Under the pieces are notes generated by a model. That model made no database searches and was not told where the DNA came from. It worked only from the letters and a program-made list of their open reading frames with translations. Below are positions 4,390 to 57,169 of a stretch of 64,000 nt of DNA, piece by piece (within the stretch, counting starts at the first letter, position 1; every line of letters begins with the position of its first letter). Source of the stretch: Trypanosoma brucei. Its lineage: Eukaryota. A program made the position numbers and the translations under genes. The stretch covers positions 2,720,001 through 2,784,000 of the forward strand of contig CM000207.1 of NCBI GenBank assembly GCA_000002445.1, in the 5' to 3' direction.

Positions 4390-5290
4390 TTAGAAGGCCA
4401 ATTTCCCTCGTTTAGCGCAATATAGAGTTTTCTCCAAATATCTAGTGTTAAATTGTTCTCCTTTCAACTCTTTATACCAAGTAAGATTTTTCACAATTAA
4501 CTTTGCTTTCTCCTCCCATGCAATTGGTTGACCCGGAAAATGAATGAATGGGGCTTCGTCAATCACCCCACTATTTGGAATGGAAAATAAATGTTCCTCA
4601 TAATCCAATCCAATCATTCCTCTCTTCAAGACAAATCTCTGTCCAACAGCTTCTTCCTGAATTTCAATCCATATTAACAGAGGCTTTGAAATGCTTTGAT
4701 CCGAACACCACTCCTTACTTCCCTTTAGTAACTCTTCGAATGCATATTCAAATTTCCCAAATGCCCATACTCTTGCTACCAAACCACCACCACTAAGATA
4801 GGGGTTTTCTACTAGGAGGCGATTTCAGCAAATGCGGTAACTTCTTATCCTATTCTTTTCTGTAACCGACATTAAAAAACCAATAGCAATCTCTCTACAT
4901 GCTCTTTGTGATCTGAATTCCTAACCAAATCCAACTGAGGCGCATAACACTCTGATGTTGTCATGAATATAATAGGGGAAATATGCTTCTCTTTTACTAT
5001 ATCTTCTCCACTAAACTTCTCTTCATTTTCAGCAGTATTCTGTATAAAATATTCCACAGAATTTTCATATTTTTCTCCGTAAGAAACAATAACATCAGAT
5101 CCGTCTAAATGAATTAAAATATCCTCATCACTTACATTCTGTTTTTCTAAAAATTCCATAACCCATCTAGGCCTTTTTACATGACTATACAAACCTCCCA
5201 TCGCAATTGTAATAATTTAAACATTGTTTAGTTTGGCACTCAATATGAGCCTACACCATCCTTGAGTTCCATGAGTCGGAACGACAACCA
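4390..5290 (-). pseudogene. GT31-like (beta-1,3-glycosyltransferase-like) family pseudogene, copy A (DxD-less paralog)
   Basis: ORFs 4390..4782 and 4872..5201 plus upstream ...KYPRVFVVVVPTHGTQGWCRLILSAKLNNV. This aligns motif-by-motif with the canonical GT31 copy at 26290..27360 (VVVVQTH~LLIVYAHSPH; IIFMTTSECY~YIMKADDDIF; YISGENIIARV~YVVGYANTISRDV; EEAVGERFV~NEDIMVGKVI). Broken by stops and frameshift. Confidence 0.5.
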
Positions 5291-6049
5291 CAAAGACTCT
5301 CGGATACTTAGTAATATTATGTGTTATATTTTCCCTGTATGATGTTGAAGAGGCATTGATCTTAAACACAAAAAATGTAAGAGCAGCGGTAAGAGTAAAG
5401 TTCTCGAGTTACTAAATTTTATGACTTAATTTACCTTTTAAATTTCAGAGAGTTGTAGGAGAATCATAGAAAACTTATGAAAAGAGTTAAGATTAACCAA
5501 TAATGTGGTTAGTTAAGGCAACGCTGTGTAGGTATATTGTCAATTGTTCCATATTGTTATGATAGATGTGTTTATGATTGTATGCTTAGTGTCTGCACTT
5601 CGTTTTTTTAGTGCGCATACATTGTTTTTCTATTTAGCTTCAACCACACAAAGACCTTTACGCTAAATGCTTTCATCTATTCAGTAGACTCACTTTTCCA
5701 CTCCATGCATTGTCATATGAATGAAAATAGCTAGTTGTTATGGTTATTGGTTCAGAAATACTAAGATTTCTGCTGGTGGATGCGTTACCTCCAACAATCA
5801 TCTACTTTTATCATGCACTTTCTATCACTTTGGATACGTCAGAGGTTCCATTTTCACTGAGCCTGGACTCTGTTTCTTCCATATTGTCCTTCCATTATCT
5901 TGTTTATTATAATTCCAATATTAATATTTGTTTTTGAAACTGTGCATTTTCCATTTCTTTCTCTTTATCTGCATTTTTTCTTTCTTGTGAAAATATTCCT
6001 GTTCCTCTTGCACTCACTCATGCTCACTTATACTCACTCAGTTTACTCC

Positions 6050-10756: not shown

Positions 10757-12424
10757 TATTTTTTCTATTTCTGGCTTATTGTTCGTTGTGTGTTTGGCTA
10801 TGTAATAGCTGCGACACGATGGTTCTTAGATTGGCACGGTGACGTTGTTTCTTCTGTTTTTCTGGCTTATTATCGTTCAGTTGGGAAAAGGTTATTAGAC
10901 TCTGTTTGCAGCTTGTGGAGTGCAGCCCACGCCGCCGCTACAGCTGCTGATAAGCTCGATATATTCGGCTGTCAACGCTTTTCAGAAGCAGCCTGCTGTG
11001 CCACCGAAACCGCATTCTGGTAGCTGCTTTCTTATGCGATCACTTAAATTTACCGTCTTGAATTAAAAAATTTACTAACATCAATTATTTCATGTCCAGC
11101 CTCCATCCAAAATTTTTCCATATTTACCAACACAATATTGGATATCGATTCAAAATTATATCTAAAGCACTCTCCTTGTTTCTTCTCTGCACATTGTGAT
11201 TGCATATACCTCCTTATTTTTTATAGTTGTGATTAAATGTATTAAAACTTCTTCTCGGTCAGGTTTCTGACTATTCCAACCATATTTGACACTCAGAATC
11301 TCACCGTTAAAAAATTTCTTGTACTAGTGCTGCAAACATCTGCGTTATTTTCCGCGTCAATTTTGTTTAAAGGTAGTTTGTAGATCTGTCAAATTTGCTA
11401 TCGATCGCCTCTTTGCCTCGCGTTCTCGAAGTATTGCAGCTGACAGCCTGTCGACTAAAGTTGGTACTAACATTGCTACGCACGGCATCAGTCGCCCTGA
11501 CGCAGATCCTTGGCTTTCGCTGCTTCTTCAGACTTTGTGGTTGCAAATCTTTTAACACAAAGAGTTTTTAACAAGTACAAACTAACACTAGCTCTTAGTT
11601 GTATTCGTCTCCCCTACTTACTTTCTTCTTTCTCACTTAACGATACAGAAAGCTGCAGGGTCCAGAAATACATATGGGAAGTCGATGCTATTTACTGTTT
11701 CCTTACTGGGTGATTCGAACCACTTGCACTTTTCCATGTTTTTTAGCTTCTAACATGCCAAATCTGCAGCTTAGACTTGCTTTTTACATTTTGGATGCTA
11801 ATACAGAAAATAAAGAAATGTTTGCGCCCATACAATACCTTGCCGATTTGGCTACGTCTCAAAACAACGAAGACTCAGTGTTTCCACACTATCTTCTCAT
11901 TCAAAAACGCTTTGATCACCGATATACCATGCCGGTTTTGACTCATTCTTTTATCTGCTTCTATTTTTACTAATTTAGCGCTACTTTTGTTTCTTTCTGT
12001 AAGTTCAACTGTGGCCATTGTACGCTTGCCTCTGAATACACTTTCTAGCTGTCGTTAATACAGGTACCACAAGCACTTTAAGATGAGTTATACGCTCTTT
12101 ATCTCGTCAATTACCTCCAATGTTGCTATAAGGTACAAAGGTATTATATTCCTTATTTTCCTTTCTTCCTTTCCGCTTTCTGTCACTGTTTCTACAGATT
12201 CCGTAGTTACTCTCCTTAGCTTATACACTGGAATTCGACTCTCCCTGATTATTCTTTCTACAATCTAGTTATGTATAATAATATCCATAATCATGTTTGA
12301 GCATGAACTGCCTATATTTCATCTCCTCATTCTCCTCTTCACTCTTCTACTTACTCCCATTGCATCCTTGGAATTTTTAAAAATGTTTCTATTTATCGAA
12401 TCCACTTCGTACTCTCATTATTGC

Positions 12425-12660
12425 TCTCATTATAATATTCGTATATACACACTCACAACACTCTTCTATCATTATCATCATCATTATTATTATTATTATT
12501 ACTGCTCTTATTATAATATTCGTATAGACACACACTCACAAGACTCTCCTATCATTATCATCATTATTATTATTATTATTATTACTGCTCTTATTATAAT
12601 ATTCGTATAGACACACACTCACAAGACTCTCCTATCATTATCATCATTATAGCCCTAACT
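12425..12660 (-). repeat. 70-bp repeat array (about 3 tandem copies)
   Basis: Tandem copies of cattataatattcgtataGacacacactcacaagactctcctatcattatcatcattattattattattattactgctctt. Confidence 0.85.
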
Positions 12661-12809
12661 AATTTGCATTAATAAAAAAATACAAGAAAAGTTAGAATAT
12701 CACTCATTTTCACATTTTCATCAGAAAGTGTAAAGGTATATAAAGTTCAGATAAATTTATAAATTTTATATAATCAAGAAAAGATTTTAAAAATTGTTGA
12801 ATGCTACAA

Positions 12810-13060
12810 AAATAGTAAAAGCAGCAGCCGTCAGAGCCGATTTGTTATTTACAAGTAAACTAGAATCACTTCAAGCTTTATTATTCCATTTGAAGTTATT
12901 GCCCTTTTGTACAGGCATCCGATGTAATGTGGCTAGTGCAGTTGCAGTTGCAGTTGTTTTATCCCCGTCTTTCTTTTCTCCTGTCTCGCCTCCTGTATTT
13001 TTTCTCTCCTTCTTGTTTTACCCCTTCTGCAGCTGTTGTTAGCTTTTCCATTTTTTGAAC
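12810..13060 (-). pseudogene. VSG: VSG 3'-end fragment (C-terminal domain remnant plus GPI signal)
   Basis: + strand gctacaaaaatagtaaaagcagcagccgtcagagccgatttgttatttacaagtaaactagaatcacttcaagc... is the reverse complement of a VSG C-terminus and GPI signal. Flanked by 70-bp repeats on one side and a telomere-like tract on the other. Confidence 0.55.
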
Positions 13061-13279
13061 ATAGTAGTAAGCCATTGCCTTACCGAGGTTGTTCTTGTTT
13101 CAATGCTTGCCAGCGCTAAAAAAACGGCGGTGCAGCGCCATAGGCCACACACCAGGGTCTTTAAAAAAAGTTTGAAGCCTGTCCCTACGAAACGTTCAGA
13201 GGCGAAATTAGCGAAAGCTACAAGAGTACAATTGTAACAATGTGGGAATAAAATTAGTATGAGAAAAATTTAAGCGAGG

Positions 13280-13735
13280 ATGCTGCCGTTCAAATAAGGG
13301 TTAGGGTTTCACTAAAAAGAGAGCTGCTGTGCCACAAAAAAAAAGTGAATCAAAAAATGGGTCGATATTGAGATGGAAATTAGAGCTGCAGATGTAAACG
13401 TAAACAAAAATGTCTGCTTCATCAATAAGGGTTAGGGCCACATCAAAAAAAGAACCAAAATCGTGACGTATCATTGGTAGTATAAAAAAACCAAGAAAAA
13501 AAATCATAACCCTAACCCTAACCCTAACTATCCCCCCTCCCCATTTCCCCGGCTGCACAAAAAAAACTCCAAAAAAAAAGGAAAGAGAAAAAAATTTTTA
13601 GTTGTCAGAAAAACAAAAAAAATTTACAGAATCAGAAGTTTTTTTACAACCAACAAACAAAATCTCGGCTGGATTTACGTGTTAAAATATATCAGAAATT
13701 TTAACCAAAGTTTTAGCAAGGAAGAAAAAGAGGGG
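13280..13735. repeat. internal degenerate telomere-like (TTAGGG/CCCTAA) A-rich tract
   Basis: ataagggttagggtttcac; ataagggttagggccac; aaccctaaccctaaccctaac (13508..13528), embedded in poly(A)-rich sequence. Homologous to the tracts at 34100..34990 and 57170..57720. Confidence 0.6.
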
Positions 13736-13738
13736 AAA

Positions 13739-15070
13739 TTAAAAAAGCAAAAATGCAAGCAAAAGAGAAACCTTCTTAATCACAAATGAATTGCTCCCTG
13801 TGGTGTTTGTGGTTGTTTTTCCATCTTCTTTTGTTACATCTGCTTTTTGTGCTTTCTCTGTGATTTTGCACTTTTCTTTTGTTTTATTCCATTCGCAACC
13901 CTTAGTGGTGCCGCATTCAGCTTGGCCCTTGCCTTCGCATTTGGCCGCCTCCGCTTTGGTAACTTGACAACCTTCTTTGTCGTCCTGCGCTGCTGCGAGT
14001 TGACATGCTGTTTCGTTCAGAGCGATGCGAACAAGTGTTGCTGCTGCTACTGCTTGTTCTGCTTTATTAGCTGCTAAGTTGGCCTGCTTGAATTTTTTGA
14101 TTGTTTCGTGTATGCTCTTGAGCTTGTTGGCTTTGACAGTTATCTCTTTTTCGGGGTACTTATCCACCACAGTTTTCGCTGGAATTTTGAGGTCTTGCCA
14201 TGTTGACTGATCTGTGCCTAAGAGAAGCAACAGTTTGTCCGCTTGTTCTGCTGACTTAAGTTGGTCGACGATCTCTGCCAGGTGCTTTGAGCATTCTTGG
14301 TATGTTGAATCGTCGGCTGTTGGCGCCGTTTTCGTCTGCCAGTTTGTTTGGGTCGGAGCACTGCCCGTTGATGTCGTGAACAATTCGCCGCCCCAGTTGA
14401 CTGCTTGAACTATGTTCTGGCCGTTAATGTAGCCGCCATCTGTTGAGTCGTGCATGGTGAGTCCTCAGTCTGCTTCGCTGCCGTCGGCAGCTAGTTCGGC
14501 GCCGGCGTCTTTTAGGGCTGCGTATTTGCCGGCCACGTTAGGCTCCTCCGAGCTGCTGGATTTTAGTAGCGGCGGGCTACGTCCGGTAGCATCCGCGATG
14601 CAATCAAGTTCATTTGCCTTTGCTTCGTTTGTCGTCCCCTTGATGCAGTAGTTTGATCCTGCTGTTGCTGCCTGGAAAAAGACACTAACAAATTCGTGGA
14701 TTTTGCCTCCGTAGAAAGCGCAGCGCCTTGCTGTTAGTATGGCTCTTTCCGCTCCGTTTTGTATTTTTTGGGCTGTTTCGACTACTAGCTTACTGGCTGG
14801 CAGTAACAGTGTTGACATTTCCTCGTACACCGCTCCGTCAGTTGGTAGAACTGCTGTAAGCAGAATCTGTTGTAGTTCTTGCAGCTCCATTGCTTCTTGT
14901 CCAAGCTTTTGTAGACGGCCGGCGACGTATGCCGGGACCTTTGTCATTTCAAGTGATAAATGGCAAACTTTTTGCATTGCTGCCACTTTTAAGGGCTTTT
15001 TGTGTGCTGACTCTCCTAGCTGGGCATTGGATATCGCTATTGCTGCTACCACCGCTGCTAGTCTCCACAT
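13739..15070 (-). pseudogene. VSG: VSG with a single in-frame TGA (at 14465..14467); otherwise full length, about 440 aa
   Basis: ORFs 14465..15184(-) and 13739..14455(-) are in the same frame, separated only by tga. Signal peptide MWRLAAVVAAIAISNAQ, A-type N-domain (AGSNYCIKG), C-terminal domain and GPI signal ...NSFVIKKVSLLLAFLLF. Confidence 0.8.
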
Positions 15071-20922: not shown

Positions 20923-22377
20923 ATGATAAGAGCGATAGCCACAATAGCTTTGCTGAGCGCAGGTGCGGCAAGAGCTACACCGCCGGCAGACGACGACAAC
21001 ATAGCAACGCTGACATTGCTTTGCCCAGCACTGCAGTTAGCGGACGGCAAAATAACATTCGAGCCGACGCGACCGACGACGGCAGCAGATATTAATGATC
21101 TGCTCGCTTTAAACATGTCCCTTGCGGATTCAACTTGGCAAGCGAAATTCCAAAAAGCAAAGTCTGACAAAAGTAGCTCAAGTGACCTGGAACGGGCCAA
21201 GGAAGAAAAACTGGGAACTCAAGCTGAAATGACAGCCTGGGCCACAGCCGCCTAAGCAATCAACTCAAAAACTAAATTAGACGCCGTTCTCAAACCGTAC
21301 GGATACGACTCTACAAACATGTCCTTGCTAGCCACAGCGGCTCAGGAAATAAAACACTACACCGCACTGGCCTTTGACGCGCAGCAGCAATTAGCAGCCG
21401 CAACCATCAACGACAAACCCGATACAGAGTTAAAGCAAGCACTAGACAAAGCGATATACGGCGGGTCAGGCGGATACAAAAACACTAGGACAAAAGATGC
21501 AGGGCTCAACAGCGCCGAACCTCGCCAAACCGCTTGCGTAGAAGCCGCCAACACACACAATCCGATCAAAACAATATCCACCATAGTGGCCTGCATTTGC
21601 GCTGTGAAAAACGACATGTCACCGACGCCGACGGCACCGTGTGGACCAAACAGCGAACAATCGATAAAGTGGGAAGCCACCGGCCTACCACTGGCCGCGG
21701 CCTGGAACAAACTGCGCACAAGGTGCCCAGTGCTAACCGAAACAACGATAACAGCAAGCAAAGTAGAGACCGCGCTGAACACAGCCAAGCAGGCATTTTA
21801 CGGCAAAGGAACCGACCTTTACGTGGGAAAATACGACACCGCCGGTTGCGACGGGTCGGCAACCGGCGCATGTATAAAATACACAAACCAAGCGACAAGC
21901 GGCATACCCAAATTCGACAAAGCGGCGTGGGTCAGCGAGTTAACTACTATCATAACTGCACTAAGAGCCCGAGAAAAAGCGACCGAACGCATAAACGCGC
22001 TCCAAAACCAAATAGCGACAGCAAAAGTATTAGTAGCAGCCGCAGCTAAACATCCGCAGAGCATGAGCGACAGACTAACCGACACTGGCGGTAAAACGCA
22101 AAAACCAGAAGACGGCGACACCATTAAAGCGGCACAAAAAGAAATAGACTGCACATCACTGGACAAAGAGACATGTAAACCCGACGTTGGGTGCAAATAT
22201 AATGAAAAAGAAAGCAAATGTGAAAACGACTCTGTAAAAACTACAACAACTCCAGCCACCACAAACACCACAGCAAGCAATTCTTTTACAATTAAGAAAG
22301 CCCCTCTTTTGCTTGCAGTTTTTCTTCTAAAATTAAAAAATTTAGAATTTAATCTCGAGTTTATTATTTTATTTTAA
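20923..22377 (+). pseudogene. VSG: VSG with a single in-frame TAA (21253..21255) and an aberrantly extended C-terminus
   Basis: ORFs 20923..21255 and 21319..22377 share a frame, and the 63 nt between them is open. Signal peptide MIRAIATIALLSAGAARA; B-type motif INDLLALNMSLADSTW; C-terminal ...NSFTIKKAPLLLAVFLLKLKNLEFNLEFIILF (read-through past the usual stop position). Confidence 0.8.
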
Positions 22378-22539: not shown

Positions 22540-22640
22540 GTTATAATAATAATAATAGGAAAGTGTTGTGAGTGTGTATATACTAATATTATAATAAGAG
22601 CAGTAATAATAATGATAATAATGATAATGATAATAAAAAG
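22540..22640 (+). repeat. 70-bp repeat, plus orientation
   Basis: gaaagtgttgtgagtgtgtatatactaatattataataagagcagtaataataatgataataatgataatgataat is the reverse complement of the form seen upstream of minus-strand VSGs. It lies 1.1 kb upstream of + VSG 23722. Confidence 0.8.
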
Positions 22641-23721: not shown

Positions 23722-25100
23722 GTGGCAGCCGATTTTTCTGAACTCGCGAATGCTAACGAAGCGACGGCGCTTTGTGCGATCGTAACACTCGCCGGCCAGC
23801 GGTCTTCGTTACCCAGCAGCAACGTACAACCACCGTCAGCCCTCAACGACCTCTTAGACCTCAACATGTCGGTGGCGACAAACGAATGGCGGGAACTCTT
23901 CAGGGCAGGGCCAGGGAAAAACACAACGAGGGATTTCCCTGAGGCCGACTACAATGAAACAACAGACTGGAAAGGAAAATGGGCCGCATGGAAAAGCAAA
24001 GCAGAAGAGCTTCTGAGCACAGACAAACTTAAAGCCAAGAGGGAGCAACAAGGGCTAAAACATGCAACTGAAGAACAGATAGCCGAAATCCGACGCGACG
24101 TGCAGAAACGTGCGGCGGAAGCGGTGGCGCTTCACTTCCAAGCAGAAGCGGACGCGCCATCGACAGACCTTCTAACGGACGAGACAATACAACAGCTTCT
24201 AAACGAAGCAGTCTACGGCCAAAAAACGGAAGCAACAGGTCAAGCTTTGGCAAAAAACAATTTCGACGAGACAACAGGCGGCAGCAGGCAGGCGCTCTGC
24301 ACAGGACAAAAGGATGGCGGAAAAACAAAAACGGTCCTCGGTACGCTGGCGTGCCTCTGCATGAAAGAAAGCACCAACAACGCCCATAATCAACACAAAG
24401 TATGCCGAGCCGATCCCGCCATGTCGGCAACATGGACCCAAGGTAGTACGCCGCCGAATCAAGCGACGATGGAGGAAGTGAAAAAACTGTGTGACACTCA
24501 AACGACAAGCCAAATAACTGCGGCGAAGCTAGAATCAAAAATAGACGCCATAACAAGCCTTATAAAGTTAGACACAACAAAGGCGACCCTCGGTGTGTAT
24601 CTAGGTACAGACTGCTCAGCACAAGATACAAGAGGGATATGTGTAAGCTACAACGGCCTTTCACAAGGAGCGGGAAAAGCCAGCGAAGTGATACCTTGGC
24701 TGGAGCAGCTTACCGACCTGCTAGGAAAATTACGAAAACATAAAAAAGCCGTTGCAATCCGACAGCACACTGCAGATGCAGTAAAGTCAAAAGCCAAGAT
24801 AACGAAGGACCTAATCTACCATGCGCGACCGTGGGCAAACAAAAACGTTGCTCAGAAGAATGTCAAAAAAAAAATAGTGACGACGCAACCTTAGCAAAAA
24901 CAAAAGAATGCGCACAACACAAAAATAACAAAAAACCTTGCACAGGAGCGAAATGCTCATGGAAAGGTGGAGAAAGCGAAAACAAAGGGGAGTGCGAAGT
25001 AGATGAGAAACAAGTTAAAAAGAAAATAAAAACAGAAAACAGTGAAAATGCAGGAACAACAAACACTACAGGAAACGATTATGCTGTTATTAACAAGTAG
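23722..25100 (+). pseudogene. VSG: VSG pseudogene (no ATG or signal peptide; frameshift in poly-A run about 24862..24873)
   Basis: ORF 23722..24894(+) starts at gtg. It has LNDLLDLNMSVATNEWRELF (B-type) and IPWLEQLTDLLGKLRKHKKAVAIRQ. ORF 24831..25100(+), in another frame, carries the C-terminal domain CTGAKCSWKGGESENKGECEV...NDYAVINK. Confidence 0.8.
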
Positions 25101-25409
25101 CCTCTTTTTCTCGCAGTTTTGCTTCTAGAATAATACTTTTAAGAATTGTGTGTAAAAGAGTTTTGCTATATTTTATAAAATTCATAAAAATTTATATTTT
25201 TAGAAAAGAAATAAATTTTCTAAAATTTATTATATTTTAAAACTTTTTGACAAAAATGTGTAGATTGTTGAAAAATTAAAAAATATAAATTTTATGTCTG
25301 AATGTGTCCTATGGGTCCAAAGTAATAAGGTAATAAAATATGAAAAAATACTGCCATTATAAAAATCATTTTTTGGTTCATTTTATTGATTTTTTAATTA
25401 TTAGTACTT

Positions 25410-25500
25410 TTGGGGTTGCAATAGTAATAGTGATAATAGTATGGCTAATAATAATAATAGGGGAGTGCTGTAAGTGTGCATATACTAATTTTTTAATAAG
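25410..25500 (+). repeat. 70-bp repeat, plus orientation
   Basis: aatagtaatagtgataatagtatggctaataataataataggggagtgctgtaagtgtgcatatactaattttttaataag. Confidence 0.65.
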
Positions 25501-27511: not shown

Positions 27512-28268
27512 ATGTTTCAAACCACATTAGTAACAGCAATAACAGTAGTCCTTTTTGCGGATAAATGTGCACCGACAGCAGGACACAATATCAAAGAATT
27601 CGCGCTAATGTGTCAACTATTTACCACGTGCGAACAGGGGACTTCAACCACTGGAAACGAGGCTGAACCAACACTAGAATCTGAAACAAAAAACGTTAGT
27701 CGTCAATAACATGTCGGCAGCAGATGAAGAATTCTTCGGAAGTAACTTCGACGACGTCCAAGACCATAAAAAGGACAAGAACTACGCAAAACACAAAAAC
27801 ACTTGGGCACAAACTAAAAAAAAGGATTTAGGCACAAAAAAGATAGGAAATATACCGGAAAAACTTACACGTATGACCGCCGGTACACTTCGGTTCGGTA
27901 TACAACAACAAGCACTGGAAGCGATACCTAACCTCGAAGCAGAAAAAGCGGCGTTGCCCAAGGACAAGACAACGATAACGATAAATTATGACCTAAAGGA
28001 GGTTCTGTACGGCGAAGGAAACACAGAAGCAAAGGGTACCTGGCAGTCAACGTTCGGCAGCGGCGGCAACGCAGCATGCGGCAATGACGGTAGCGCAGAC
28101 AACAAGGTCGGCACATCTCTAGCCAACGGCCTGGCCTGCCGTTGCGGCGACAACTCGGACGACACGGCTGCCGCAGGTTGTATAAGCAACAGGAGCTCAA
28201 CCGGAAGCAAGTTCGCCAGCGAAGCCTGTGGCCCAGCACCCAAAGCGACAATAGTGGCGAAATACTAA
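27512..28268 (+). pseudogene. VSG: VSG 5' fragment (signal peptide plus part of N-domain, frameshifted)
   Basis: ORF 27512..27709 MFQTTLVTAITVVLFADKCAPTAGHNIKEFALMCQLF. ORF 27711..28268, in the next frame, has ...LKEVLYGEGNTEAKGTW...LACRCGDNSDDTAAAGC. It ends about 95 bp before the ingi 5' end. Confidence 0.7.
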
Positions 28269-28724: not shown

Positions 28725-31700
28725 TTGAGCGAGACAAGGATGACGCTTGAAGAGGCGGCTTGCTTTAGCGTTGCTGGCTACCAACATCACGGAATAGCTC
28801 GTAACTGCAAAGGAGGTGGTGTATCAATACTAGTGAGGGAGGACCTACCAGTTGAGATCGGTATGGCCGTTGTTGGTCGCATTGAACAAGTGCATGCAAC
28901 AATTCACCTTGCACGTGGAAAGGCGCTGACTGTCACGTCGGCATACGTCCCACCAAAACACACCTTCACGGCAACTGACCTAGATACGCTTCTGACAACT
29001 GACGGTTACCAGCTCATCGGTGCAGACGCTAACGCACACGCGTTGGCATGGGATCGCACGAGCCCACCAAATACCAAGGGTGAAACCCTCACACAGTGGT
29101 GCATTGACAACCAGTTTCTGGTCTGCAACACTGGTCAGTGCACCAGGTACGCGCGCCACCACGGGGAGTCCACCCTTGATGTGACACTGTCAAGGAATTG
29201 CACAGTGTACATGTGGACATCGCTGTATTCTCCCGATAGCGATCACCATAACATATTTTTCGACTTTATCGTTGGAGATGACACAGATGCACTGAGTTGC
29301 CCGCGGCTTCGAAAGCCCATGTACGCATGGCTAAAAGCTAACTGGAGGAATTTCCGTCTCAAGGTTGACGAGCTCTGCAGGAAAATTGGTAGAGAGAAGA
29401 ACGTCAATACCCTGGAACAGAAATTGAGCTCCGCCATCCGCATTGCGACGAAGATGTTCGTCCCCCGTAGCTGCAGAGCAACGCCACCACATTGGACACC
29501 AACGCTCACTAAACTCGATGAAGAGATCGCTGGATGCGGACCCTCCCACCGAAGGGAAATGTTGGTAGCCACGCGTAAGCAGATCCTGGACCGTACCACA
29601 AAGAAGAGATGGAGAACGCTATGCTCCAGACTTGCGGTGTCAGACCGCTGCAGTTGGCACATTGTCAAGAAGGTATATGCGCCACGACCACTAACCACAC
29701 TGGCTGTACTTGTTGATAACGCGGCCATCACGGACTACCATCAAGCTGAGAGGTTCAGTAAACTGTACTCGTCCCGTGCAAGAACGCACCCCGACTCACA
29801 CCCACCGGCACCAATAAAGACGATAGCGAGTGAGTTCAGTCCCATCACGATGGCTGAACTATGGAGATCGATCAAACTGCTTCCGACCGGATCCGCAGCA
29901 GGACCTGATTGCTTATACAACGAGGCAATACAACATTTCGGTAGAACAGCGCTGAATGTTGTTCTGAGGCTATTCAATGAGAGCCTACGAACGGGAGTCG
30001 TGCTGCCTGCATGGAAGATTGGTGTTATCATCCCCATCCTGAAGGCCGGAAAAAAGGCGGAGGACCTCGATTCTTACAGGCCTGTGACGCTCACAAGCTG
30101 TCTCTGCAAAGACATGGAGCGCATAATTGCCGCGAGGCTTAGAGACACTGTTGAGTCCCAGCTGACGCCGCAGCAATCAGGCTTTCGCCCCGGATGCTCA
30201 ACGCTCGAACAACCGCTGCACGTCCGCGCTGCCCTCTGCCGCCCCACGCACCAATATCGTACAGGTGCTGTATTCGTTGACTACGAGAAGGCATTCGATA
30301 CAGTAGACCACGACAAAATTGCGAGGGAAATGCACAGAATGAAGGTATCACCCTACATTGTGAAGTGGTGCGTATCATTTCTGAGTAACCGAACTGGAAG
30401 AGTGAGATTCAAGGAGAGGCTTTCCAGAAGCAGAACATTTGAGCGAGGAGTGCCACAAGGAACTGTCCTTGGCCCAATCATGTTCATTATTGTCATGAAC
30501 TCGTTGAGCCAGCGCCTTGCAGAAGTGCCGTTGCTGCAGCACGGATTCTTTGCAGACGACCTAACGCTACTTGCGAGACACACAGAGAGGGATGTCATCA
30601 ACCACACACTGCAATGCGGCCTAAACGTGGTGTTACAGTGGTCACAAGAGTACTTCATGTCTGTCAATATAGCGAAAACAAAGTTCACACTCTTCGGGTG
30701 TATAGAGCGCCACCCCCTTACATTGCAACTGGACGGCGAAAGAATAGGAGCTGACAGGACACCGAAGCTTCTCGGAGTAACATTCCAGTGTCTGCAGGGG
30801 ATGGCAACACATGCAGCCGAAACGAGACGCAAGATGGACTTCCGACTACTGCAGATAGCATCCATCTCAGCTTCTACATGGGGGCCAAGACGACAAGTAC
30901 TGAGAGCTTTTTATCTAGCACTCGTACAGGCACACACCATGTATGGCATTGAGGTATGGTACTGGGACGCTTCGGAACGAAGTCGCGACCTCCTTGCAGC
31001 AGCACAACACAAAGCCAGTCGCATCATAGCTGGCATACCGCATGGGACGCGCAAAGAGAACTCTCTGCTGGAAGCAAACCTCCTGCCACTCAAGACGGCC
31101 ACTCTTGTGCGCAGCATGAAATTCATACTGATGTGTGAGTCACGAGGCGGATGTCTGCGCCGCAGTGCTGAGGAAGTACACCACAGCAAACATCCAGTCA
31201 GAGTCTTACATTCCCGCATCATGCGGTCCTACCCCCACCTCCGCATTGAGCCACGCGAGCACCCACTGGAGACATCGACACTCCGCCACAGCTGCCGACC
31301 GCTATTTCACACGCAGATAAAGCCTGTGTGCGCTGATGACCCTGACGATGTCAAAAGGGAGGCTTCCGAAAAGTGGATTGAACGGCATTTTGCACGGAGG
31401 GGGAAGGAGCCACCGCGACGAGAGCACTACGAATTGTGGACTGATGGATCCGTGTCCCTCGGTGAGAAGTCCGGAGCAGTTGCTCTGCTCTATAGAAACA
31501 ACACGCTGATTTGTGCACCCAAAACTGGAGCAGGGGAACTCTCATGTAGTTACAGAGCGGAATGCGTAGCATTAGAGATAGGACTGCAACGGCTGCTGAA
31601 ATGGCTCCCGGCTTACAGAAGCACACCGAGCAGGTTGTCCATCTTCTCTGACTCGCTGTCAATGTTAACAGCACTGCAGACAGGTCCCCTAGCCGTAACG

Positions 31701-32576
31701 GACCCAATTCTGAGACGACTATGGAGGCTTCTGCTTCAAGTTCAGAGAAGGAAGGTGCGTATCCAACTGCAATTTGTGTTTGGCCATTGTGGCGTGAAAC
31801 GGAATGAGGTTTGTGATGAAATGGCCAAAAAGGCCGCTGATTTACCACAGTTGCGAGATACATGGATCCCCGACATCATTGCTTATGCGAAGCGAGTGCT
31901 TAGGTCGGAAGAAGTCCATGAGAACACTCATAGGTTTGGTATCACGGGCAACCACTTTCCAACAAAACATAAGGAAGAACTGACGAGGGAAGAAGAAACG
32001 GCACTGGCACGCTTTCGGGTTGGGTCTTCAAGACACTATGGATGGATGTTGCGAAAGATCAACCCGAGTGTGCCTCCACAGTGCCGATGGTGCAACCCAC
32101 AACATGCAGCGATAGGACCAACAATACAAACAGCCCCACTTGTTGCGACACGCACTCTTCAGAGAACCTCCGAACCGATCAAATGTACGGAATGTGATGC
32201 CACATACCAATGCCGCTCGAGTACTGTAACGCACATGGTAAACAAACATGGCTTTGTGCGAGCTGATGCCCTCCGGAGGATCAAATACGGCGATGCAACA
32301 CCCGCAGTGGATATCCCCCCGGAGCCCCCTCCAGTGGTGGCGATCGTTCCTCTACCATCGAGCACACGAGTCCCGATGAGACCGCAGGTGCTTCATTGTA
32401 CCATCTGTGCCTCCAAATTCGCAGTACCAGGCAGACTATTACACCACCTTAGAACAATACATGGCATAGGCAGCGGTAGTTGCCGCGTGAAAAGGGGGCG
32501 AGAGAACGAGGACTCATTGCAAGGAGATGGTAGAGCCCCAGCAGCGCCAGCCTCTCAGGATACACGGAAGCTGTAG
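28725..32576 (+). CDS. ingi polyprotein ORF (endonuclease C-terminal part, reverse transcriptase, RNase H, zinc fingers), 1283 aa, ending at an in-frame stop
   Basis: ORF-track protein with RT motifs (YRPVTLTSCLCKDMERIIAARL; FADDLTLLA), RNase H and CxxC...HxxxH fingers (CTECDATYQCRSSTVTHMVNKHG; CTICASKFAVPGRLLHHLRTIHG). Confidence 0.85.
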   Translation: MSETRMTLEEAACFSVAGYQHHGIARNCKGGGVSILVREDLPVEIGMAVVGRIEQVHATIHLARGKALTVTSAYVPPKHTFTATDLDTLLTTDGYQLIGADANAHALAWDRTSPPNTKGETLTQWCIDNQFLVCNTGQCTRYARHHGESTLDVTLSRNCTVYMWTSLYSPDSDHHNIFFDFIVGDDTDALSCPRLRKPMYAWLKANWRNFRLKVDELCRKIGREKNVNTLEQKLSSAIRIATKMFVPRSCRATPPHWTPTLTKLDEEIAGCGPSHRREMLVATRKQILDRTTKKRWRTLCSRLAVSDRCSWHIVKKVYAPRPLTTLAVLVDNAAITDYHQAERFSKLYSSRARTHPDSHPPAPIKTIASEFSPITMAELWRSIKLLPTGSAAGPDCLYNEAIQHFGRTALNVVLRLFNESLRTGVVLPAWKIGVIIPILKAGKKAEDLDSYRPVTLTSCLCKDMERIIAARLRDTVESQLTPQQSGFRPGCSTLEQPLHVRAALCRPTHQYRTGAVFVDYEKAFDTVDHDKIAREMHRMKVSPYIVKWCVSFLSNRTGRVRFKERLSRSRTFERGVPQGTVLGPIMFIIVMNSLSQRLAEVPLLQHGFFADDLTLLARHTERDVINHTLQCGLNVVLQWSQEYFMSVNIAKTKFTLFGCIERHPLTLQLDGERIGADRTPKLLGVTFQCLQGMATHAAETRRKMDFRLLQIASISASTWGPRRQVLRAFYLALVQAHTMYGIEVWYWDASERSRDLLAAAQHKASRIIAGIPHGTRKENSLLEANLLPLKTATLVRSMKFILMCESRGGCLRRSAEEVHHSKHPVRVLHSRIMRSYPHLRIEPREHPLETSTLRHSCRPLFHTQIKPVCADDPDDVKREASEKWIERHFARRGKEPPRREHYELWTDGSVSLGEKSGAVALLYRNNTLICAPKTGAGELSCSYRAECVALEIGLQRLLKWLPAYRSTPSRLSIFSDSLSMLTALQTGPLAVTDPILRRLWRLLLQVQRRKVRIQLQFVFGHCGVKRNEVCDEMAKKAADLPQLRDTWIPDIIAYAKRVLRSEEVHENTHRFGITGNHFPTKHKEELTREEETALARFRVGSSRHYGWMLRKINPSVPPQCRWCNPQHAAIGPTIQTAPLVATRTLQRTSEPIKCTECDATYQCRSSTVTHMVNKHGFVRADALRRIKYGDATPAVDIPPEPPPVVAIVPLPSSTRVPMRPQVLHCTICASKFAVPGRLLHHLRTIHGIGSGSCRVKRGRENEDSLQGDGRAPAAPASQDTRKL

Positions 32577-33689
32577 TTTCAATGTGACCTGTGTGAGGCG
32601 AGCTTCGGTACACGCTCTTCCCGGTCACTACACAAGAAATTCAAACATAAGAGCATAGTGACGGAGGACGGTACCGTGGTGGTGGTGCAATTCCCTCGTA
32701 AGCGTGCCCGTGAAGGAAACGTTGACGTCCCGGGGAAAGGCGAGGAGCAGTGTGGTGTGCGCCAGAAAGTGCTCAGTTGCAGGGACTCTCTCATCCGACA
32801 CTGTAAGGCTTTCCACTAATGTGAGGAAGTCGAGGTTAAATGCAGCAAAAGCACAAAATTATGTGCCACTGATTCCCCGCATACAAATGCATCCATGTTG
32901 GGTGTGACCGACATGCGGAAGGCAGTGTGCTAGCAAAACTGGCCTCACCCTACATCAAAAGAAGATGCACGGTATGAAGATAGAGCGCGCTGTTACCAGC
33001 CAACGCGGCGACTGCGAAGAAACGGCGCTGCACCTGATGAACTGTCCCGATTTGAAGGAGTTACGTGTTAGGTTTGCGGTGGAAGGTGTGTGTGTGTGTG
33101 CAGGATGTATTATTCTCCAAAAGACTGGCGCAGTTTCTCATTGCGGTTGAACGAAGCCGGCCGCATGTGAAGTCCTCCCCTAATGTAACAGTTATACAAC
33201 CCACTTTCCTTTCTGCAACTTTCCCCCTTATTGCCGAGTGTGGAGCTAGCAGGAAAAGCACCGGACGCAGGAATAGTCCAGACACCCTCAGAGACAGAGG
33301 GGGTATGCAATCAACAAGCAACAGAAACAGAAAAAGGGGAAGAGAATAATAAACGAATAACAAAAATCAAAACAAAAGGATTGCTAATTGACATCTTTTG
33401 GAGAGTCTGGGGTGGGAGGTTTCTCGCCCCATCTGCTGTATTCCGTTCAACTGCGGAGCTACAACAAAAGTTATAGAAAGTGTATTAGGCTGAATAAAAA
33501 AGGGAGACTCTGCCACAGTCGCCAGACCGATAGCATCTCAGGGCTCTACGGTGATGGCTGATGGCCGCGCCAGTGGGGGGAAACTCCCACGAAGGCACGA
33601 AGAAAATTCCAAAAAATATAATATGTTAAATTTTTCAAAATAGCACATTCTTGAAAATTTTCAAAAATTTTATTATGGCATTAAACTCA

Positions 33690-34080
33690 AAAAAGCGTCA
33701 GCCATCAGAGCAATTCGCGTTTTGACGAGGATACTGGAATCACGGAATTTTGTTTTAACTCTCTCCTGTCCATCAATGAAATCAATCCATCCGGAGACAG
33801 ATTTCTTTTCTCTTTCAGTTTCCCTGGAGCATTGACACATTTCTCCGGGTTATTATACACGCCACAATTGTGTCTCCTGGTGCTACAGCTTCATCTGTTC
33901 CTTGGTTTGTCGTCCTTTTCTCTCTCTTTGGGTTTGCACCAAGCTGCTGTACAGGTTGCGTTTGTTGTGTGCTGCTTGCTGTCTGCACGCATCGCTGAAG
34001 GTTGCTGCCTATTTGGCGATATGTGCTGATGCTGAATATCGTTCTCCTGCTCCTACTTGCCTCGCCTTAAAAGCACAGGG
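33690..34080 (-). pseudogene. VSG: VSG 3'-end fragment (C-terminal domain remnant plus GPI signal)
   Basis: Reverse complement encodes ...EKCVNAPGKLKEKRNLSPDG... and, in an adjacent frame, FRDSSILVKTRIALMADAFL (GPI-signal type). A VSG 3'-UTR-like motif at 33615..33640. Confidence 0.55.
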
Positions 34081-34099
34081 ACGACTGAAGTGAAACTAC

Positions 34100-34990
34100 G
34101 ACGGGGTACCGTAAAAAAACAGCCGCTATATCACTAGAAGAAAAACATGGATCATTAAAAAAATATTGGGTCGATGTGGGGATGAAAAAGAAGGTGGAAA
34201 AAATTTAAGGAAAGATGTATGCTGGATGAAAAACGGTTAGGGTTTGCAGAAAAAAGAGACGCTTAATAATTAAACAAAATTAAAAAATATATTTAAAAAA
34301 ACTAAAAATCAAAAAAATCAAAAAAATGAAAATTTAGAAAAAATTAAAGAGGCAAATTTTTTTAAAACGCTTCTGAAGTACAAAAAATAAAAGCCGCCGC
34401 ACGGCTTGTGAGAATAAGGGTTAAGGTCCCATAACAAAATAGCCGCTGGACGGCTGAAAAAATAAAAACAAAAGCTAAACCCCAAAACGACTCAGAAAAT
34501 TAAAAAATTAGCGTGGAGGAAAATTAACCCTAACCCGAAACACCTCGGCATAAAAAGGAAGGGAGGTCCAAAAAAAACGATATCGGATGGAAAAGGAAAG
34601 TAAAAAATATCAAAGGTCAAAAAAATTTTTAAATTAAAATTCAAAAATTCACGAAATTAAAAAAATGCTGAAAAAAAATTTAAGCATAAAAAAATCAAAA
34701 TTACAATTAAAAAGTTGTTAAAATAGAAAAATTCAAAAAATCTAAAGGTCTAAAAATCTAAAAACTTTGAAAAAACCCTAAAAAATACTAACCCTAAAAT
34801 GTCAAAAAAATTCAAAAAAGGGAGAAAAAATGGAAAAAAATATAGGCGCCAGAAAAAAATCACAGAATCAGAATATTTTACAAAAACACACTATTTTCAG
34901 GTAAATTACCTGTTAAAATATATCAAATAGCAAAAATTTCTTTTAAAAGGGGAAATTTGTTTTAGAAAAACAAGGCCACAAAAGCAAAAA
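34100..34990. repeat. internal degenerate telomere-like A-rich tract
   Basis: aacggttagggtttgc; ataagggttaaggtccc; aaccctaacccgaaac; actaaccctaaaatg, inside poly(A)-rich DNA. The segments tgggtcgatgtggggatgaaaaag and cagaatcagaatattttacaaaaacac are homologous to the 13.3 to 13.7 kb and 57.2 to 57.7 kb tracts. Confidence 0.55.
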
Positions 34991-35007
34991 CACTGAGAGC
35001 GAATTGT

Positions 35008-36598
35008 TTGTTTACCAAAAAGCTTCCATTTCGGCACATTTCTTTTTCTAGATCAGGCTCATTATCTTTACCCTTCCTCCATGCGCAATTTTGCTTGTCG
35101 CCTGTTTTGCCATTTTTACAAGCGGCTTTATCACTTCCGTGTCGTGCACACCCATTTGAAGCTGCTCCTCCTGTAGCTCCATCTTTTTATGCTTTAGCTG
35201 CTTGTTGTTCTACTGCTGCCGTATTCAATTTGCAGTGTTTTCCATCTTTCGCGTCACCGCCCTCCCATTTGCATTTTCCATTGTTTTTGGAGTCAGCTGC
35301 TACCGTTATGGCTTCGCACTCTTTGGTCAGGTCGTCCGTCTCACGTGGCGCGGTTTGTTCTGCTTTTGTAGCATGGTTTTTGACCTACGTGTCCCATATT
35401 ATGTCCTTTAGCGTCTCATTTAGGTTGTCAATTTGCTGATTTATATCCTTGATGCTTTGCGCTGCAGCTATAATGTGTTCCTGCTGCGTTAGCGCTTCTT
35501 CGAGACTTACTAACCAGGGTACCGTTATTTTTTCGCCAGAAAAATGTTCGCCTTTATAGTGAACGCATTTGCCGCCGTTGGTGTCCGTTTTACCTAGGCA
35601 ACCGTCGGCAGCCGTGCCCGCTGTTATGCCTAATAAATGCATTGTGGCCTCGTTGGTATCGCTTTTTTTTTGCTAGGCTGAGTTTTGAAGTTTGCCACCG
35701 CTGCGTGCAGCGCTGCGGCTGTTAGGCTCTGTCCCTTTGGCAATTTTTGGCATTCTTTTTTGAAGACTGCCCATATCTTTTTGTCTTCCTTGGCGGCTGG
35801 CCAGTCGACGGTTGCCAGGTTGTGTCCGTCTTCTGTGGCCCCACACCCCGGGAAGCACGCTTGGCCAGCGTCGTTGTCAGCGGCTTTAAAAGCGCACAAG
35901 CAATGCAGGTCCCATCTGAGACTCCGGCCGGCCAGAGAAGTGCCTAGGCTGGCGTGGTTGCCGCATCTGTCCGCCAGGCCCGCGCCCCCTGACGCTGTCG
36001 TCTCCATTGTTTCCGTTTGGTCTTTGCCGTAAAGCGCATCTTGCTTTGCTTTTTTTACTGCTGCCGGGGTTAGCTTGTCTTTCTCCAATTTATATTTCTT
36101 GTAAAGCTTGAAAGCCTGCCGAGCCATTGATTCTAGCCGCTTTTTGGCTCTGCTGGTTAGCTTGGCTTGTCGCCACTTTTCGTATTCTGCCTTAGTTTTT
36201 TGTTCCACAAGTTTTTTTAGCCCTAGTTGCCAAAAGTCCCCGTGTTCTTTCCATTTTTCTAACTCGGCGCCGCCTTTTGGCGCTACATCTTTAACTTTGA
36301 GTTGCTCAATCGCATAACATGCCTCCAAAACGTTAGTGAAGACTGCGGAGCTACTTGTTAGATTTATTGCTGCTACCACGGCAACTGCGGCTCCTGGGTT
36401 CTGATCTCATGGTGGTACAATGGTCTTCGTCAGCGCCAAATTTACTAAGTCACAAAGAGCGCCGAACTCCTGTCTTAGTGTGCCTTTTCCTGTGTCAGCA
36501 GCGCTTGGCTGCATATAAAAAAGAACCATTAGTACAGAAACGGCTGCAAGTCGCTGTTTCAGTGTCATTTTCTGGCTGATCTGTTCCTTTAACGCCAA
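35008..36598 (-). pseudogene. VSG: VSG pseudogene (frameshifted into at least 3 frames)
   Basis: ORF 36407..36598(-) MTLKQRLAAVSVLMVLFYMQPSAADTGKGTLRQEFGALCDLVNLA. ORF 35630..36379(-) N-domain (HCLCAFKAADNDAGQAC). ORF 35385..35642(-). C-terminus and GPI signal at about 35008..35100. Confidence 0.8.
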
Positions 36599-37597: not shown

Positions 37598-38400
37598 TTA
37601 TGTAAGGGTTTTCACAATTAATTTCGCTTTCTCTTTCCATGCAATTGGCTGTACAGGAAAATGGATGAATGGAACCTTTCCAACTTCACTATTAGTCAGA
37701 ATCAAAAAGTATCTCTCCTCATAATCTAATCCAATCATTCCTCTCTTCAAAACAAATCTCTCTCCAACAGCTTCTTCCTGAATGGCACTCCATATTAGCA
37801 GAGGCTTTGAAATACTTTGATCCGACCACCACTCCTCATTTTTTTTACAATAACTCTTGAAATGCATATTCAAACATTTTAACTGCCCATACTCTTGCTA
37901 TTAAAGGTCAACCACTAATATAAGGTTTTCTACTAGGAGGAGATTTCAGTAAATGAGGTAATTTATTATCCTCCCCTTTTCTGTAACCGACATGAAAAAA
38001 CCAAAAACATCTCTGCACATGCTCCTTGTGATCTGAATTCATAACCAAATCCAACTGAGGCGCATAACACTCTGATGTTGTCATGAATATAATAGGGGAA
38101 ATATGCTTCTCTTTTACTATATCTTCTCCACTAAACTTCTCTTCATTTTCAGCAGTATTTTGTATAAAATATTCCACACCATTCTCATACTTATTTCCAT
38201 CACTAACTATAACATCAGATCCGTCTAAATGGATTACAATATCCTCATCACTTGCATTATGTTTTTTCAAAAATTCCATAACTCATCTAGGTCTCTTAAC
38301 ATGGCTATACAGACCTCCTATCGTAATTACAATAATTTCAACATTTCTTAATTAGCCACTCAATATGAGTCAACACCATCCTTGAGTTCCATGAGTTTGA
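37598..38400 (-). pseudogene. GT31-like family pseudogene, copy C (best-preserved copy)
   Basis: ORFs 37908..38279(-) and 37598..37873(-): MEFLKKHNASDEDIVIHLDGSDVIVS...IIFMTTSECYAPQLDLVMNSDHKEHVQRCFWFFHVGYRKGEDNKLPHLLKSPPSRKPYISG / ...AIQEEAVGERFVLKRGMIGLDYEERYF... Confidence 0.5.
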
Positions 38401-39354
38401 ACGACAACGACAAACACTCTTACTTTGCTAGAATTATTTTGTGTTATATTTGTTGTTGTGTTTTATTGAAAATCTATTTCGCTTAAACAAAGTGAATGTT
38501 ATAACAACAATAGATCCCATAAGATAATAAACTTCATCTCCGTAACTCACCTACAAATTTGATTGTTTTATAAACAAAGCTTAGAAACATTAAGGAAACA
38601 AGTCAAATGCGCCACTAAGGTCTTTAGTTAAGGAAAAGATTTCATATAGATAATGCCTTGATGTTTATATATTGGAACTGTGAAGTGTGTATACTTAGTG
38701 TAAATAGCTTATCTTTGGGCACACAAATCTGATACTTTCTTAATAAAATAACTTTTGCTATACCTATAATCACACACTAACTGTATTTCACTGTAGTTTG
38801 CATTTACATATTTTGCGTATGCATTTTTATTACAATTGCAGTAGCGATTCGTATTGTTTCTCTCAAATATACTACGAAGTTTGCTACCCTTACGTGATAA
38901 ATACTATAACCACACTGTTTTATTATGAGAATTCAATTAGTATGGCTTCATAAATTAACAATTCTGTTGTTTATACCTCTATCCCTGAAATAGCATGTAT
39001 TTGCGATTTTCAAACATAGGGATAAATTTCATTAAGTATTATTTTCTTTCTTAGCATATTACAGCGCACCCTATTGTTTCACTCTATATTTATGTTTTTT
39101 TATCTTTTTCTTTTCTGTCTCTATTGATACTGATAACGTAGCTATCAAATTTGGTTTGCATTCTCTACCCTGTTTCTACCTAATTTTCACCTCCATCATC
39201 TCCCTGTGTATAATGTTTCCCTTTGTCATGTTTGTGCCTAAAACTACGCATATTCTATGTCATTCTCTCTCCCCTTGCCTCTCATTCACTCTCGTTGGAC
39301 ACTTAATATTGTTTTAAAAGATTCTAATTTGGCATTATATTTAGTCTTCACCGA

Positions 39355-45965: not shown

Positions 45966-46201
45966 TAAGCCTAGCCACTATCCGTAAATAGGTCAAAATA
46001 ACAAAATTAAAATGTTACTCACTTTGTTACACCTTATCACCATAATAAGCGGCATACACAGGACACAGTAATATACATTTTACTAAAATTTCATATTTTA
46101 AAAAATTTCACTAATTTTCACACTTTTATTAAAGGTGTTAAATATATCAAATTTAGAAAACTTCATTAATTTCATAAAGTCGAGGGGAAATCTTAAAAGT
46201 T

Positions 46202-54774: not shown

Positions 54775-55400
54775 TCATTCGTCATAAACCGCCTTGTTTC
54801 CAACTCTTTCTACTAAGTAAAATTTTTTACAATCAATTTTTCTTTCTCCCATGCAAGTGGCTGAAAAACAAAAATAAATAAATGCAGTCTTTCCAAACTC
54901 TCCACTAGTTGGAATAGAAAATAATGTCTCCTCATAATTCCATCCAATTATTCCTCTTCTCAAAGAAAATTTCTGTACAACAGCTTCTTTTTGAGTTGCA
55001 CTTCACATTGGTAAAAGCGATGAAAACTTTGCTCTAATTTCCATTATTCTCTTCCTCTCAAAAATTCTCCAAATACATATTCAAATATCTTAAATTCCCA
55101 AACTCTGGCTATTAAGCCACCACTAAGATAAGATTTTTCACTAGGAGGTGATTTCAGCAACTGAGGTAATTTTTTATCCTCTTCTTTTTCTTAACCTACA
55201 TTAAAAAACCACTTACATATCTCCATGCTTTTTTACAATATCCTCATCACTTGCATTATGTTTTTATAAAAATTCTATAACATCTAGGTTTTCTGACATG
55301 ACTATACAAACCTCCAATCTAAATTGTAATAATTTCAACATGGCTCCGTTTGGCACTCAGTATGAGTCTACACCATCCTTGAGTTACATAAGTTTGAACG
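54775..55400 (-). pseudogene. GT31-like family pseudogene, copy D (internally deleted, degenerate)
   Basis: ORF 54775..54963(-) MRRGIIGWNYEETLFSIPTSGEFGKTAFIYF corresponds to KRGMIGLDYEE.LFSIPNSG of copy A. Sequence at 55330..55440 matches the 5' flank of copy C (38320..38440). Confidence 0.4.
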
Positions 55401-56404: not shown

Positions 56405-56495
56405 TCTCAATATAATATTAGTATATTCGCACTCGCAATACAATCATATCGATATCATCATTATTAGTATCAGTACTGTTATAACCCTACCTATT
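56405..56495 (-). repeat. 70-bp repeat (single, degenerate)
   Basis: ctcaatataatattagtatattcgcactcgcaatacaatcatatcgatatcatcattattagtatcagtactgttataaccctacc. Confidence 0.6.
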
Positions 56496-57010: not shown

Positions 57011-57146
57011 AGATCTGGAAGTCGTTCCTTAACTGCTGATCGTAATAATCTCCTAGTTTCGAATAGCTCTCTTTTTAGATTATTTATACTTTAAAAGCAA
57101 TTCGTTTCGCGCAGCTACACTGCCACGCGCCAGCGTTAAAAACGTA

Positions 57147-57167: not shown

Positions 57168-57169
57168 TA

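Follow-up and report, generated by a model that had tools for sequence, protein, structure and literature searches.

The window analysed here, a 64-kb stretch of Trypanosoma brucei contig CM000207.1 to which all coordinates refer, is part of a silent array of genes for the variant surface glycoprotein (VSG) in Trypanosoma brucei brucei TREU927. Pfam searches placed A-type and B-type VSG N-terminal domains (NTDs) and VSG C-terminal domains (CTDs) in its open reading frames (ORFs), and the intact VSG found at 39735-41174 shares 100% identity with XP_827754.1 / EAN77424.1. The minus strand carries about 14 VSG 3′ ends. The ordinary cassette consists of a VSG, a 3′ untranslated region (3′UTR) with the 16-mer TGATATATTTTAACAC or a variant of it, some 150-300 nt opening with a TTTTTGATGAAATGTG-like sequence, and a 70-bp repeat, a block of which was found after each ordinary cassette. 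Three of the roughly 14 cassettes carry, downstream of the VSG, a tract with telomere-like repeats that runs into the orphan 3′ end of a second VSG; the other ten or so have no such tract. An initial annotation of this DNA had placed the three composite modules on the minus strand at 12810-15070, 33690-36598 and 56740-59349, with a 70-bp repeat after the first and third copies and the ingi retrotransposon after the second, and all of this was borne out. Successive modules lie about 20 kb from one another, and four to five ordinary cassettes intervene.

The same minus-strand order was found in each module (M1, M2 and M3): a VSG pseudogene, a canonical 3′UTR with its 16-mer, a conserved spacer of some 120-150 nt, TTAGGG-like repeats whose G-strand runs in VSG sense, subtelomere-like units (one or two, each some 130 bp long) that each end in a "box", and an orphan CTD fragment of 213-324 bp (F1, F2 and F3) with an array-type 3′UTR, beyond which lies a 70-bp repeat (F1, F3) or ingi (F2). 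A three-way alignment gave the order of blocks common to all tracts as an 8-mer-like motif (TTTCCCC in all three modules), the 16-mer (exact in M1 and M3, one mismatch in M2), a TCTGATTCTGT block, TTTTTTCTGG, AAAAATTTTTTT, a T-run, a G-rich block and the onset of the TTAGGG-like repeats, about 115-150 nt past the 16-mer. Counted from the stop codon, the first such repeat lies at 211 nt in M1, 165 nt in M2 and 214 nt in M3. Perfect hexamers number just two to four in the tracts, whose copies have diverged from one another. The VSGs had been described as complete. They are indeed full length, but none is intact: translation revealed one stop in M1, one frameshift in M3, and three stops and a frameshift in M2. 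The decay of gene and tract is correlated, M2 combining four coding lesions with the most degenerate tract and M1 and M3 one lesion each with perfect TTAGGG runs. By Pfam, the NTD is A-type in M1, B-type in M2 and unclassified in M3, and the CTD classes differ as well.

In M1, the pseudogene (13739-15070, minus strand like all module features) combines an A-type NTD (Pfam Trypan_glycop) with a short CTD ending ...LLAFLLF*, and translation placed its in-frame TGA near 14465. The telomere-type 3′UTR and spacer (13529-13738), matched to M3 by nhmmer, comprise the TTTCCCCTC 8-mer, the 16-mer at 13694-13679, a CCAGCCGAGATTT block at 13672-13660, the TCTGATTCTGT block at 13636-13626, a T-rich run and a G-rich block. 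A perfect (TTAGGG)3.7 run, G-strand in VSG sense, was detected at 13528-13507 both by Tandem Repeats Finder and by pattern search. Beyond it stand two tandem units at 131-bp spacing (13462-13195), delineated as a direct repeat, by alignment of the units and by nhmmer matches to M3 and M2; they open GC(A)GC, T-run, CCCTAACCCTTATT, with the telomere hexamers inverted, and end in boxes at 13372-13356 and 13248-13231. The spacer holding the junction between tract and resident sequence spans 13036-13194, and the nhmmer alignment of M1 with M3 fades at about 13170-13131. F1 (12787-13035) encodes a CTD with its glycosylphosphatidylinositol (GPI) signal, ending ...DSSLLVNNKSALTAAAFTIFVAFNNF* and interrupted by stops. 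The segment at 12410-12786 contains an array-type 3′UTR, with a degenerate 16-mer followed by TTCTGATGAAAATGTG, and the next cassette's 70-bp repeats (2.8 copies, 12650-12410).

In M2, translation and Pfam (VSG_B and Trypan_glycop_C) identified a pseudogene at 34962-36568 with a B-type NTD, ending ...FVALFF*. Its tract (34104-34961) is longer and more degenerate and contains T-rich slippage repeats. Within it were recognised a variant 16-mer (34925-34910), the TCTGATTCTGT block (34872-34862), degenerate TTAGGG at 34797-34786 and 34539-34528, and two units with CCTTAACCCTTATT / CCCTAACCG (34445-34262 and 34262-34120; box at 34181-34165). F2, ending ...RDSSILVKTRIALMADAFLSLMP*, occupies 33673-33996, and about 100 nt of 3′UTR separate it from the ingi boundary at about 33.58 kb.

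The M3 pseudogene (57675-59319; translation, homology search, Pfam Trypan_glycop_C) is 62% identical to T. brucei VSG 529 and ends ...SAAFVALLF*. Its frameshift, near 57880, lies within the CTD. That site (57870-57890) falls in a conserved ...GSAEGENTN/C... stretch of the CTD, and the same sequence occurs in the VSG ending at 42991; the frameshift could be a recombination joint instead of a simple indel. The telomere-type 3′UTR and spacer (57462-57674), recovered by nhmmer and containing a T-rich run and a G-rich block, carry the 16-mer at 57615-57600 and CCAGCCGAGATTT at 57593-57581. They are followed by a TAGTTAGG/TTAGGG-like array that ends in TTAGGCTTAGGGTTAGGG (57378-57461; Tandem Repeats Finder), again with the G-strand in VSG sense, and by a single unit of about 130 bp (57195-57345, box at 57241-57225) that matches M1 by nhmmer. 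The spacer with the junction (56934-57194) includes a (TA)10 run at 57165-57145. F3, ending ...NNCKWEDSKCKDSSFLVNKKFAVMAAAFVDL*, was located at 56721-56933, ahead of an array-type 3′UTR and the next cassette's 70-bp repeat (56404-56720, the repeat itself at 56482-56404).

The telomere-like character of the tracts was assessed by counting matches to the telomere dimer TTAGGGTTAGGG with at most two mismatches. Twelve were found against 3.1 expected, a number reached in 0 of 100 shuffles, and ten of the twelve lie inside the three tracts, whose combined length is about 3% of the window. Likewise, 39 of the 55 telomere-derived 7-mers on the minus strand fall in the tracts, most of the others being at the edges of 70-bp blocks. 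Searches with nhmmer across the window, with composition-corrected scoring, established that the tracts are homologous to each other, as the initial annotation had proposed. Tracts 1 and 3 share two collinear blocks (13677-13523 with 57598-57450, E 3e-7; 13347-13143 with 57341-57121, E 3e-8) and tracts 1 and 2 a single one (13440-13304 with 34245-34103, E 3e-5), in conserved order; no further significant match to the tracts was found in the rest of the 64 kb. Identity is about 60-70%, with many indels. The non-telomeric segments said to be common to all three copies proved to be of two kinds: "tctgattctg..." does occur in all of them, while ccagccgagattt is confined to M1 and M3. Two forms of a conserved box had also been distinguished; the conservation held, but direct-repeat and unit alignments identified both forms as end variants of one unit of about 130 bp. 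The CCCTAA motifs sit within direct units of about 131 bp. Beyond the window, two array contigs of T. equiperdum lack the tract, and exact-pattern scans of metagenome and prokaryote-genome collections returned 0 matches.

The tracts had been called poly(A)-rich, which is true of the plus strand only; the VSG sense strand is T-rich (41-51% T). Such low complexity, together with the slippage repeats of M2, would suit generic T-rich simple sequence in which telomere-like hexamers arose by chance and which has no telomeric history. This explanation appears highly improbable, since the motif count exceeds all 100 shuffles, with the matches concentrated in so small a part of the window, since the composition-corrected homology and the conserved block order connect the tracts, and since some ten further regions between VSGs, with comparable AT content, lack the tract.

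Pairwise comparison of all VSG 3′ ends and flanks in the window for best partners resolved two classes. By their 3′ ends and flanks, M1, M2 and M3 match one another best; the partners of F1, F2 and F3 are found among the ordinary array ends (v52743, v6485 and v42991), neither among themselves nor in the M class. The array consensus and the M-type flank diverge right after the 16-mer, in the polyadenylation region: array ends continue ...ACAC TTTTTGATGAAATGTG and M-type ends ...ACAC(G/C)TAAA.CCAGCCGAGATTT. Orphan CTD and tract always occur together in the window, with no orphan lacking a tract and no tract lacking an orphan. The orphans are in sense orientation relative to the module VSGs and have the attributes of array cassettes, namely a CTD with GPI signal, an array-type 3′UTR and a 70-bp repeat (F1, F3; ingi at F2). 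Pfam placed F1, F2 and F3 on positions 28-103 (E 6e-7), 12-104 (E 1e-7) and 29-103 (E 9e-15) of the Trypan_glycop_C model, tblastn also recovering F1 and F3; the resident gene thus seems to have lost its whole NTD.

At an expression-site telomere the G-strand runs in VSG sense. The canonical 3′UTR, with 8-mer-like motif and 16-mer, stands directly upstream of each tract. In bloodstream expression sites, the distance from VSG to telomere is 200-1590 nt (PMC2567434); M1 and M3 fall at the lower end of this range, and the weak first hexamers of M2 lie slightly closer to the gene. By published criteria, TTAGGG-like repeats some 200 nt or further 3′ of the gene are a marker for telomere-proximal VSGs, and they have been used to flag minichromosomal reads (PMC3708902, citing Aline & Stuart 1989). 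Because the tracts fit this published criterion, the reading of the modules as telomeric flanks within an array is supported. The resemblance to telomere-proximal VSG 3′ flanks of T. brucei, at expression sites and on minichromosomes (PMC3708902), extends to the 3′UTR with its 16-mer, the TTAGGG-like repeats a few hundred nt on, the sense of the G-strand and the conserved blocks. The difference is that each tract here stops after at most four perfect hexamers and one or two units, and is followed by an orphan CTD and the array; the likeness is one of hallmarks. These hallmarks, together with the distinct M-class 3′ ends and flanks, support the proposal of the initial annotation that a telomere-proximal flank lies upstream of a truncated VSG 3′ end. 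We consider that each tract is probably a telomere-proximal VSG flank embedded in the array, and by the same hallmarks the donors were presumably telomeric.

A long (TTAGGG)n run to a chromosome end was not found in the modules: there are at most 3.7 perfect repeats, with array DNA beyond. For this reason the modules are best regarded as relics and not as present-day telomeric flanks. Their telomere units are non-terminal, with non-telomeric DNA on either side, as in interstitial telomeric sequences. A head-to-head telomere fusion was considered and rejected, no inverted repeat linking the TTAGGG run to the CCCTAA units in any tract; the inverted pairs that were found in M2 and M3 are short, weak and unrelated to the TTAGGG/CCCTAA switch, and M1 has none. 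Given the repetitiveness of VSG arrays, telomeric reads might have been misjoined into this one when TREU927 was assembled from clones. Such a chimera is extremely improbable: the three copies are mutually diverged, with at most four hexamers of degenerate repeat set in unique sequence, no junction has a long repeat that could mislead an assembler, and the VSGs concerned have decayed into pseudogenes, which telomeric VSGs typically have not.

The interpretation that we favour, with a probability of about 0.6, is that each module is what remains of a telomere-proximal VSG cassette that entered the silent subtelomeric array by copying or relocation. VSG conversion tracts usually end in the homology shared at the 3′ side, in the CTD or the 16-mer/3′UTR. 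In the proposed history, copying would have overrun this usual limit and entered the DNA next to the donor's telomere, for which the array offers no counterpart; an illegitimate or microhomology join within a resident array gene would then have ended it. The join would have deleted the resident NTD and left the resident CTD, its array-type 3′UTR and the next 70-bp repeat downstream. Later decay may then have turned the incoming genes into pseudogenes and degraded the short telomere tracts. Both the direction of transfer and the mechanism of joining are deduced from the structure of the modules and are offered as the probable course of events. The module itself would be a non-functional scar, with no evident present function.

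Several points weigh against this interpretation. Every join leaves about one CTD, at most some 430 bp of a gene of about 1.5 kb, which a simple illegitimate join does not predict; the chance that three random breaks would all leave CTD-only remnants is, as a rough estimate, (430/1500)^3, or about 0.02. In each copy, a stretch of 107-217 bp is unassigned, from the end of recognisable tract homology to the point where the CTD can be recognised. VSG conversion is well documented in the opposite direction to the transfer supposed here, which leads from telomere to array. Furthermore, the telomeric identity of the spacer is based on hallmarks, and is least secure for the distal 130-bp units with their inverted CCCTAA.

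The segment between box and orphan was also compared with the 5′ signature of ingi/RIME, using as reference the minus-strand sequence at the boundary near 33.58 kb, taken as the ingi/RIME end. The two look alike by eye, but their local alignment falls within the shuffle distribution, and this candidate was rejected.

The same local structure is predicted by a second route, in which the array grew outward stepwise. Each module would then be a former chromosome end, internalised when distal array DNA starting within a VSG C-terminal region was added to it, which could have occurred by break-induced replication, telomere conversion or fusion with a broken fragment. Eroded telomeres would account for the very short residual TTAGGG runs, and the spacing of about 20 kb, with four to five ordinary cassettes between modules, is in keeping with successive additions. 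This route demands three successive end-healings on one arm, each entering its donor at the CTD, and requires that the VSG downstream direction (lower window coordinates) faced the chromosome end; the inverted plus-strand block between M2 and M1 is a further difficulty. On balance we regard it as rather unlikely.

The number of events was considered separately. According to the initial annotation, the modules are paralogous copies of one ancestral flank and not independent events. This conclusion could not be upheld as worded, in view of the differing NTDs and unit numbers, orphans that are closer to other array ends than to one another, junctions without significant similarity and neighbours that are not duplicates. 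Nor do the shared non-telomeric blocks show a single origin, because telomeric VSG flanks are reportedly conserved in organisation; conserved blocks would be expected among independent flanks too, if one goes by the title of Aline & Stuart 1989 as cited in PMC3708902, which speaks of a "conserved sequence organization" 3′ of telomeric VSGs. The idea in full, compatible with either transfer of a cassette or addition at a chromosome end, is that one ancestral scar was amplified by segmental duplication and that the upstream VSGs were later replaced through cassette conversion. In its favour are the identical composite architecture of the three copies with each orphan restricted to the CTD, their clustering among about 14 cassettes in 64 kb, the M1-M3 homology that runs some 60 nt past the box, and the shared position (28/29) of the Pfam model at which both F1 and F3 begin. 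On the other side, both NTD and CTD classes differ, the orphans are not one another's nearest relatives, the number of units varies (two, two and one), tract identity is merely about 60-70% with many indels, and similarity between the junction segments does not reach significance (z 0.4-1.7). No paralogy links the neighbouring cassettes, whose sole shared flank element is an unrelated non-VSG repeat, and on this ground segmental duplication of whole modules was rejected. A single amplified scar is a serious contender, to which we would give somewhat less than even odds. Matches at the tract/orphan junctions picked out by eye, such as TTTTTAGCGCTGGC, were in no case significant; therefore neither shared nor distinct junctions can be claimed.

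VSG switching is usually portrayed as a one-way process, from the silent archive to telomeric expression sites, and the renewal and enlargement of the archive are, to our knowledge, poorly documented. If the favoured interpretation is correct, the telomere-type flanks fossilised in the array would document physically that the archive takes in cassettes of telomeric history. The modules also suggest an origin for orphan C-terminal fragments, which act as 3′ donors in mosaic formation. Such fragments are said, from the 2005 work of Berriman et al., to form a sizeable minority of the array VSGs of TREU927. F1, F2 and F3 are of the same kind as these archive fragments, having a CTD, a GPI signal and an array-type 3′UTR, with a 70-bp repeat. 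In the literature searched, no report was found that connects C-terminal VSG fragments with a telomere-type tract upstream of them.

Known recombination processes offer partial parallels. In 3′ donation, or segmental VSG conversion, and in telomere conversion, boundaries cluster at the CTD and copying can proceed through the VSG toward the telomere. The difference is that those events are documented as transfers to expression sites; the product here lies in a silent array and has a non-homologous 3′ join. Interstitial telomeric sequences (reviewed in PMC6410037) are scars left when breaks are repaired, ends fuse or subtelomeres exchange, and resemble the tracts in their short, degenerate, non-terminal repeats, unique flanks and position at a rearrangement junction; the modules differ in containing a specific gene cassette and a recurrent orphan VSG tail, and in having hexamers in both orientations in each tract. 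In Plasmodium knowlesi, internal SICAvar/pir islands likewise bring variant-antigen genes away from the chromosome end together with telomere-like repeats, as summarised in PMC9131526. There, a different gene family is involved and the repeats are widespread in complex families; here they occur in three of about 14 cassettes and are tied to the VSG 3′ flank. Telomere-like tracts inside T. brucei arrays, or their combination with an orphan CTD, were not found in the literature searched, key older papers being outside its reach, so that a prior mention is possible; searching the literature by sequence strings brought up unrelated papers only. Thus the parts are known (telomeric flanks, interstitial telomeric scars, orphan CTDs and CTD recombination boundaries) and the recurrent composite appears to be the new element, which we did not find described.

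A broader proposition would make the modules a general signature of an archive fed or extended from chromosome ends, most orphan CTDs in the genome being displaced resident tails beside a telomere-type tract. We hold this to be doubtful, and decidedly on the improbable side. Were it true, the modules would record either a steady flow from telomere to array or old ends internalised step by step, a record that could be put into chronological order. A telomere-type 3′ flank would give the array VSGs that keep it additional 3′ homology to expression sites, and these might be activated before ordinary array genes. A genome-wide association would provide a simple sequence marker to trace and date archive growth across strains, a testable prediction of which array genes are used early in infection, and candidate internal sites for telomere proteins or base J in silent arrays. 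Should the association be merely local, the modules would amount to ordinary interstitial telomere scars.

Further features of the array were recorded in the course of the analysis. A block of VSGs at 20.9-28.3 kb lies on the plus strand within the otherwise minus-strand array; it contains genes at 21319-22377 and 23722-25118 and a fragment at 27711-28265, and carries its own plus-strand 70-bp repeats at 22543-22620 and 25421-25500. The ingi retrotransposon, also on the plus strand, extends from about 28.3 to 33.6 kb, its EN-RT-RNaseH ORF occupying 28725-32576. Because it sits between the plus-strand VSG block and the 3′UTR of F2, ingi marks an inversion or strand-switch boundary. A Rfam scan of the window gave no match.

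A non-VSG element on the minus strand is present in three copies of 75-86% identity, at about 54810-55470, 37730-38470 and 4610-5330, upstream of three different VSGs, where it separates the gene from the 70-bp repeat in each case; no Pfam match was obtained for its ORFs (37908-38279 and 4390-4782 among them). The VSG 3′ ends and flanks at 45975-46315 and 62787-63127 are 88% identical over 333 nt, far above any other pair, and therefore suggest a recent duplication of a cassette inside the array. The distance from the 70-bp repeat to the start codon is only about 265 bp in M3 (59320-59585), about 0.9 kb in M1 and about 2.8 kb in M2, ordinary cassettes having about 1-1.5 kb. Finally, a single telomere-like motif in VSG sense (TTAGGG, TAGGGTTA or GGGTTAGGG) was seen at the upstream edge of several 70-bp blocks, on the minus strand at 12659, 59659-59656, 56489-56488 and 9035-9024 and in weaker form near 46000 and 42790; the ttagTTAGGGctataatgatg directly before the block at 12650 is an example.

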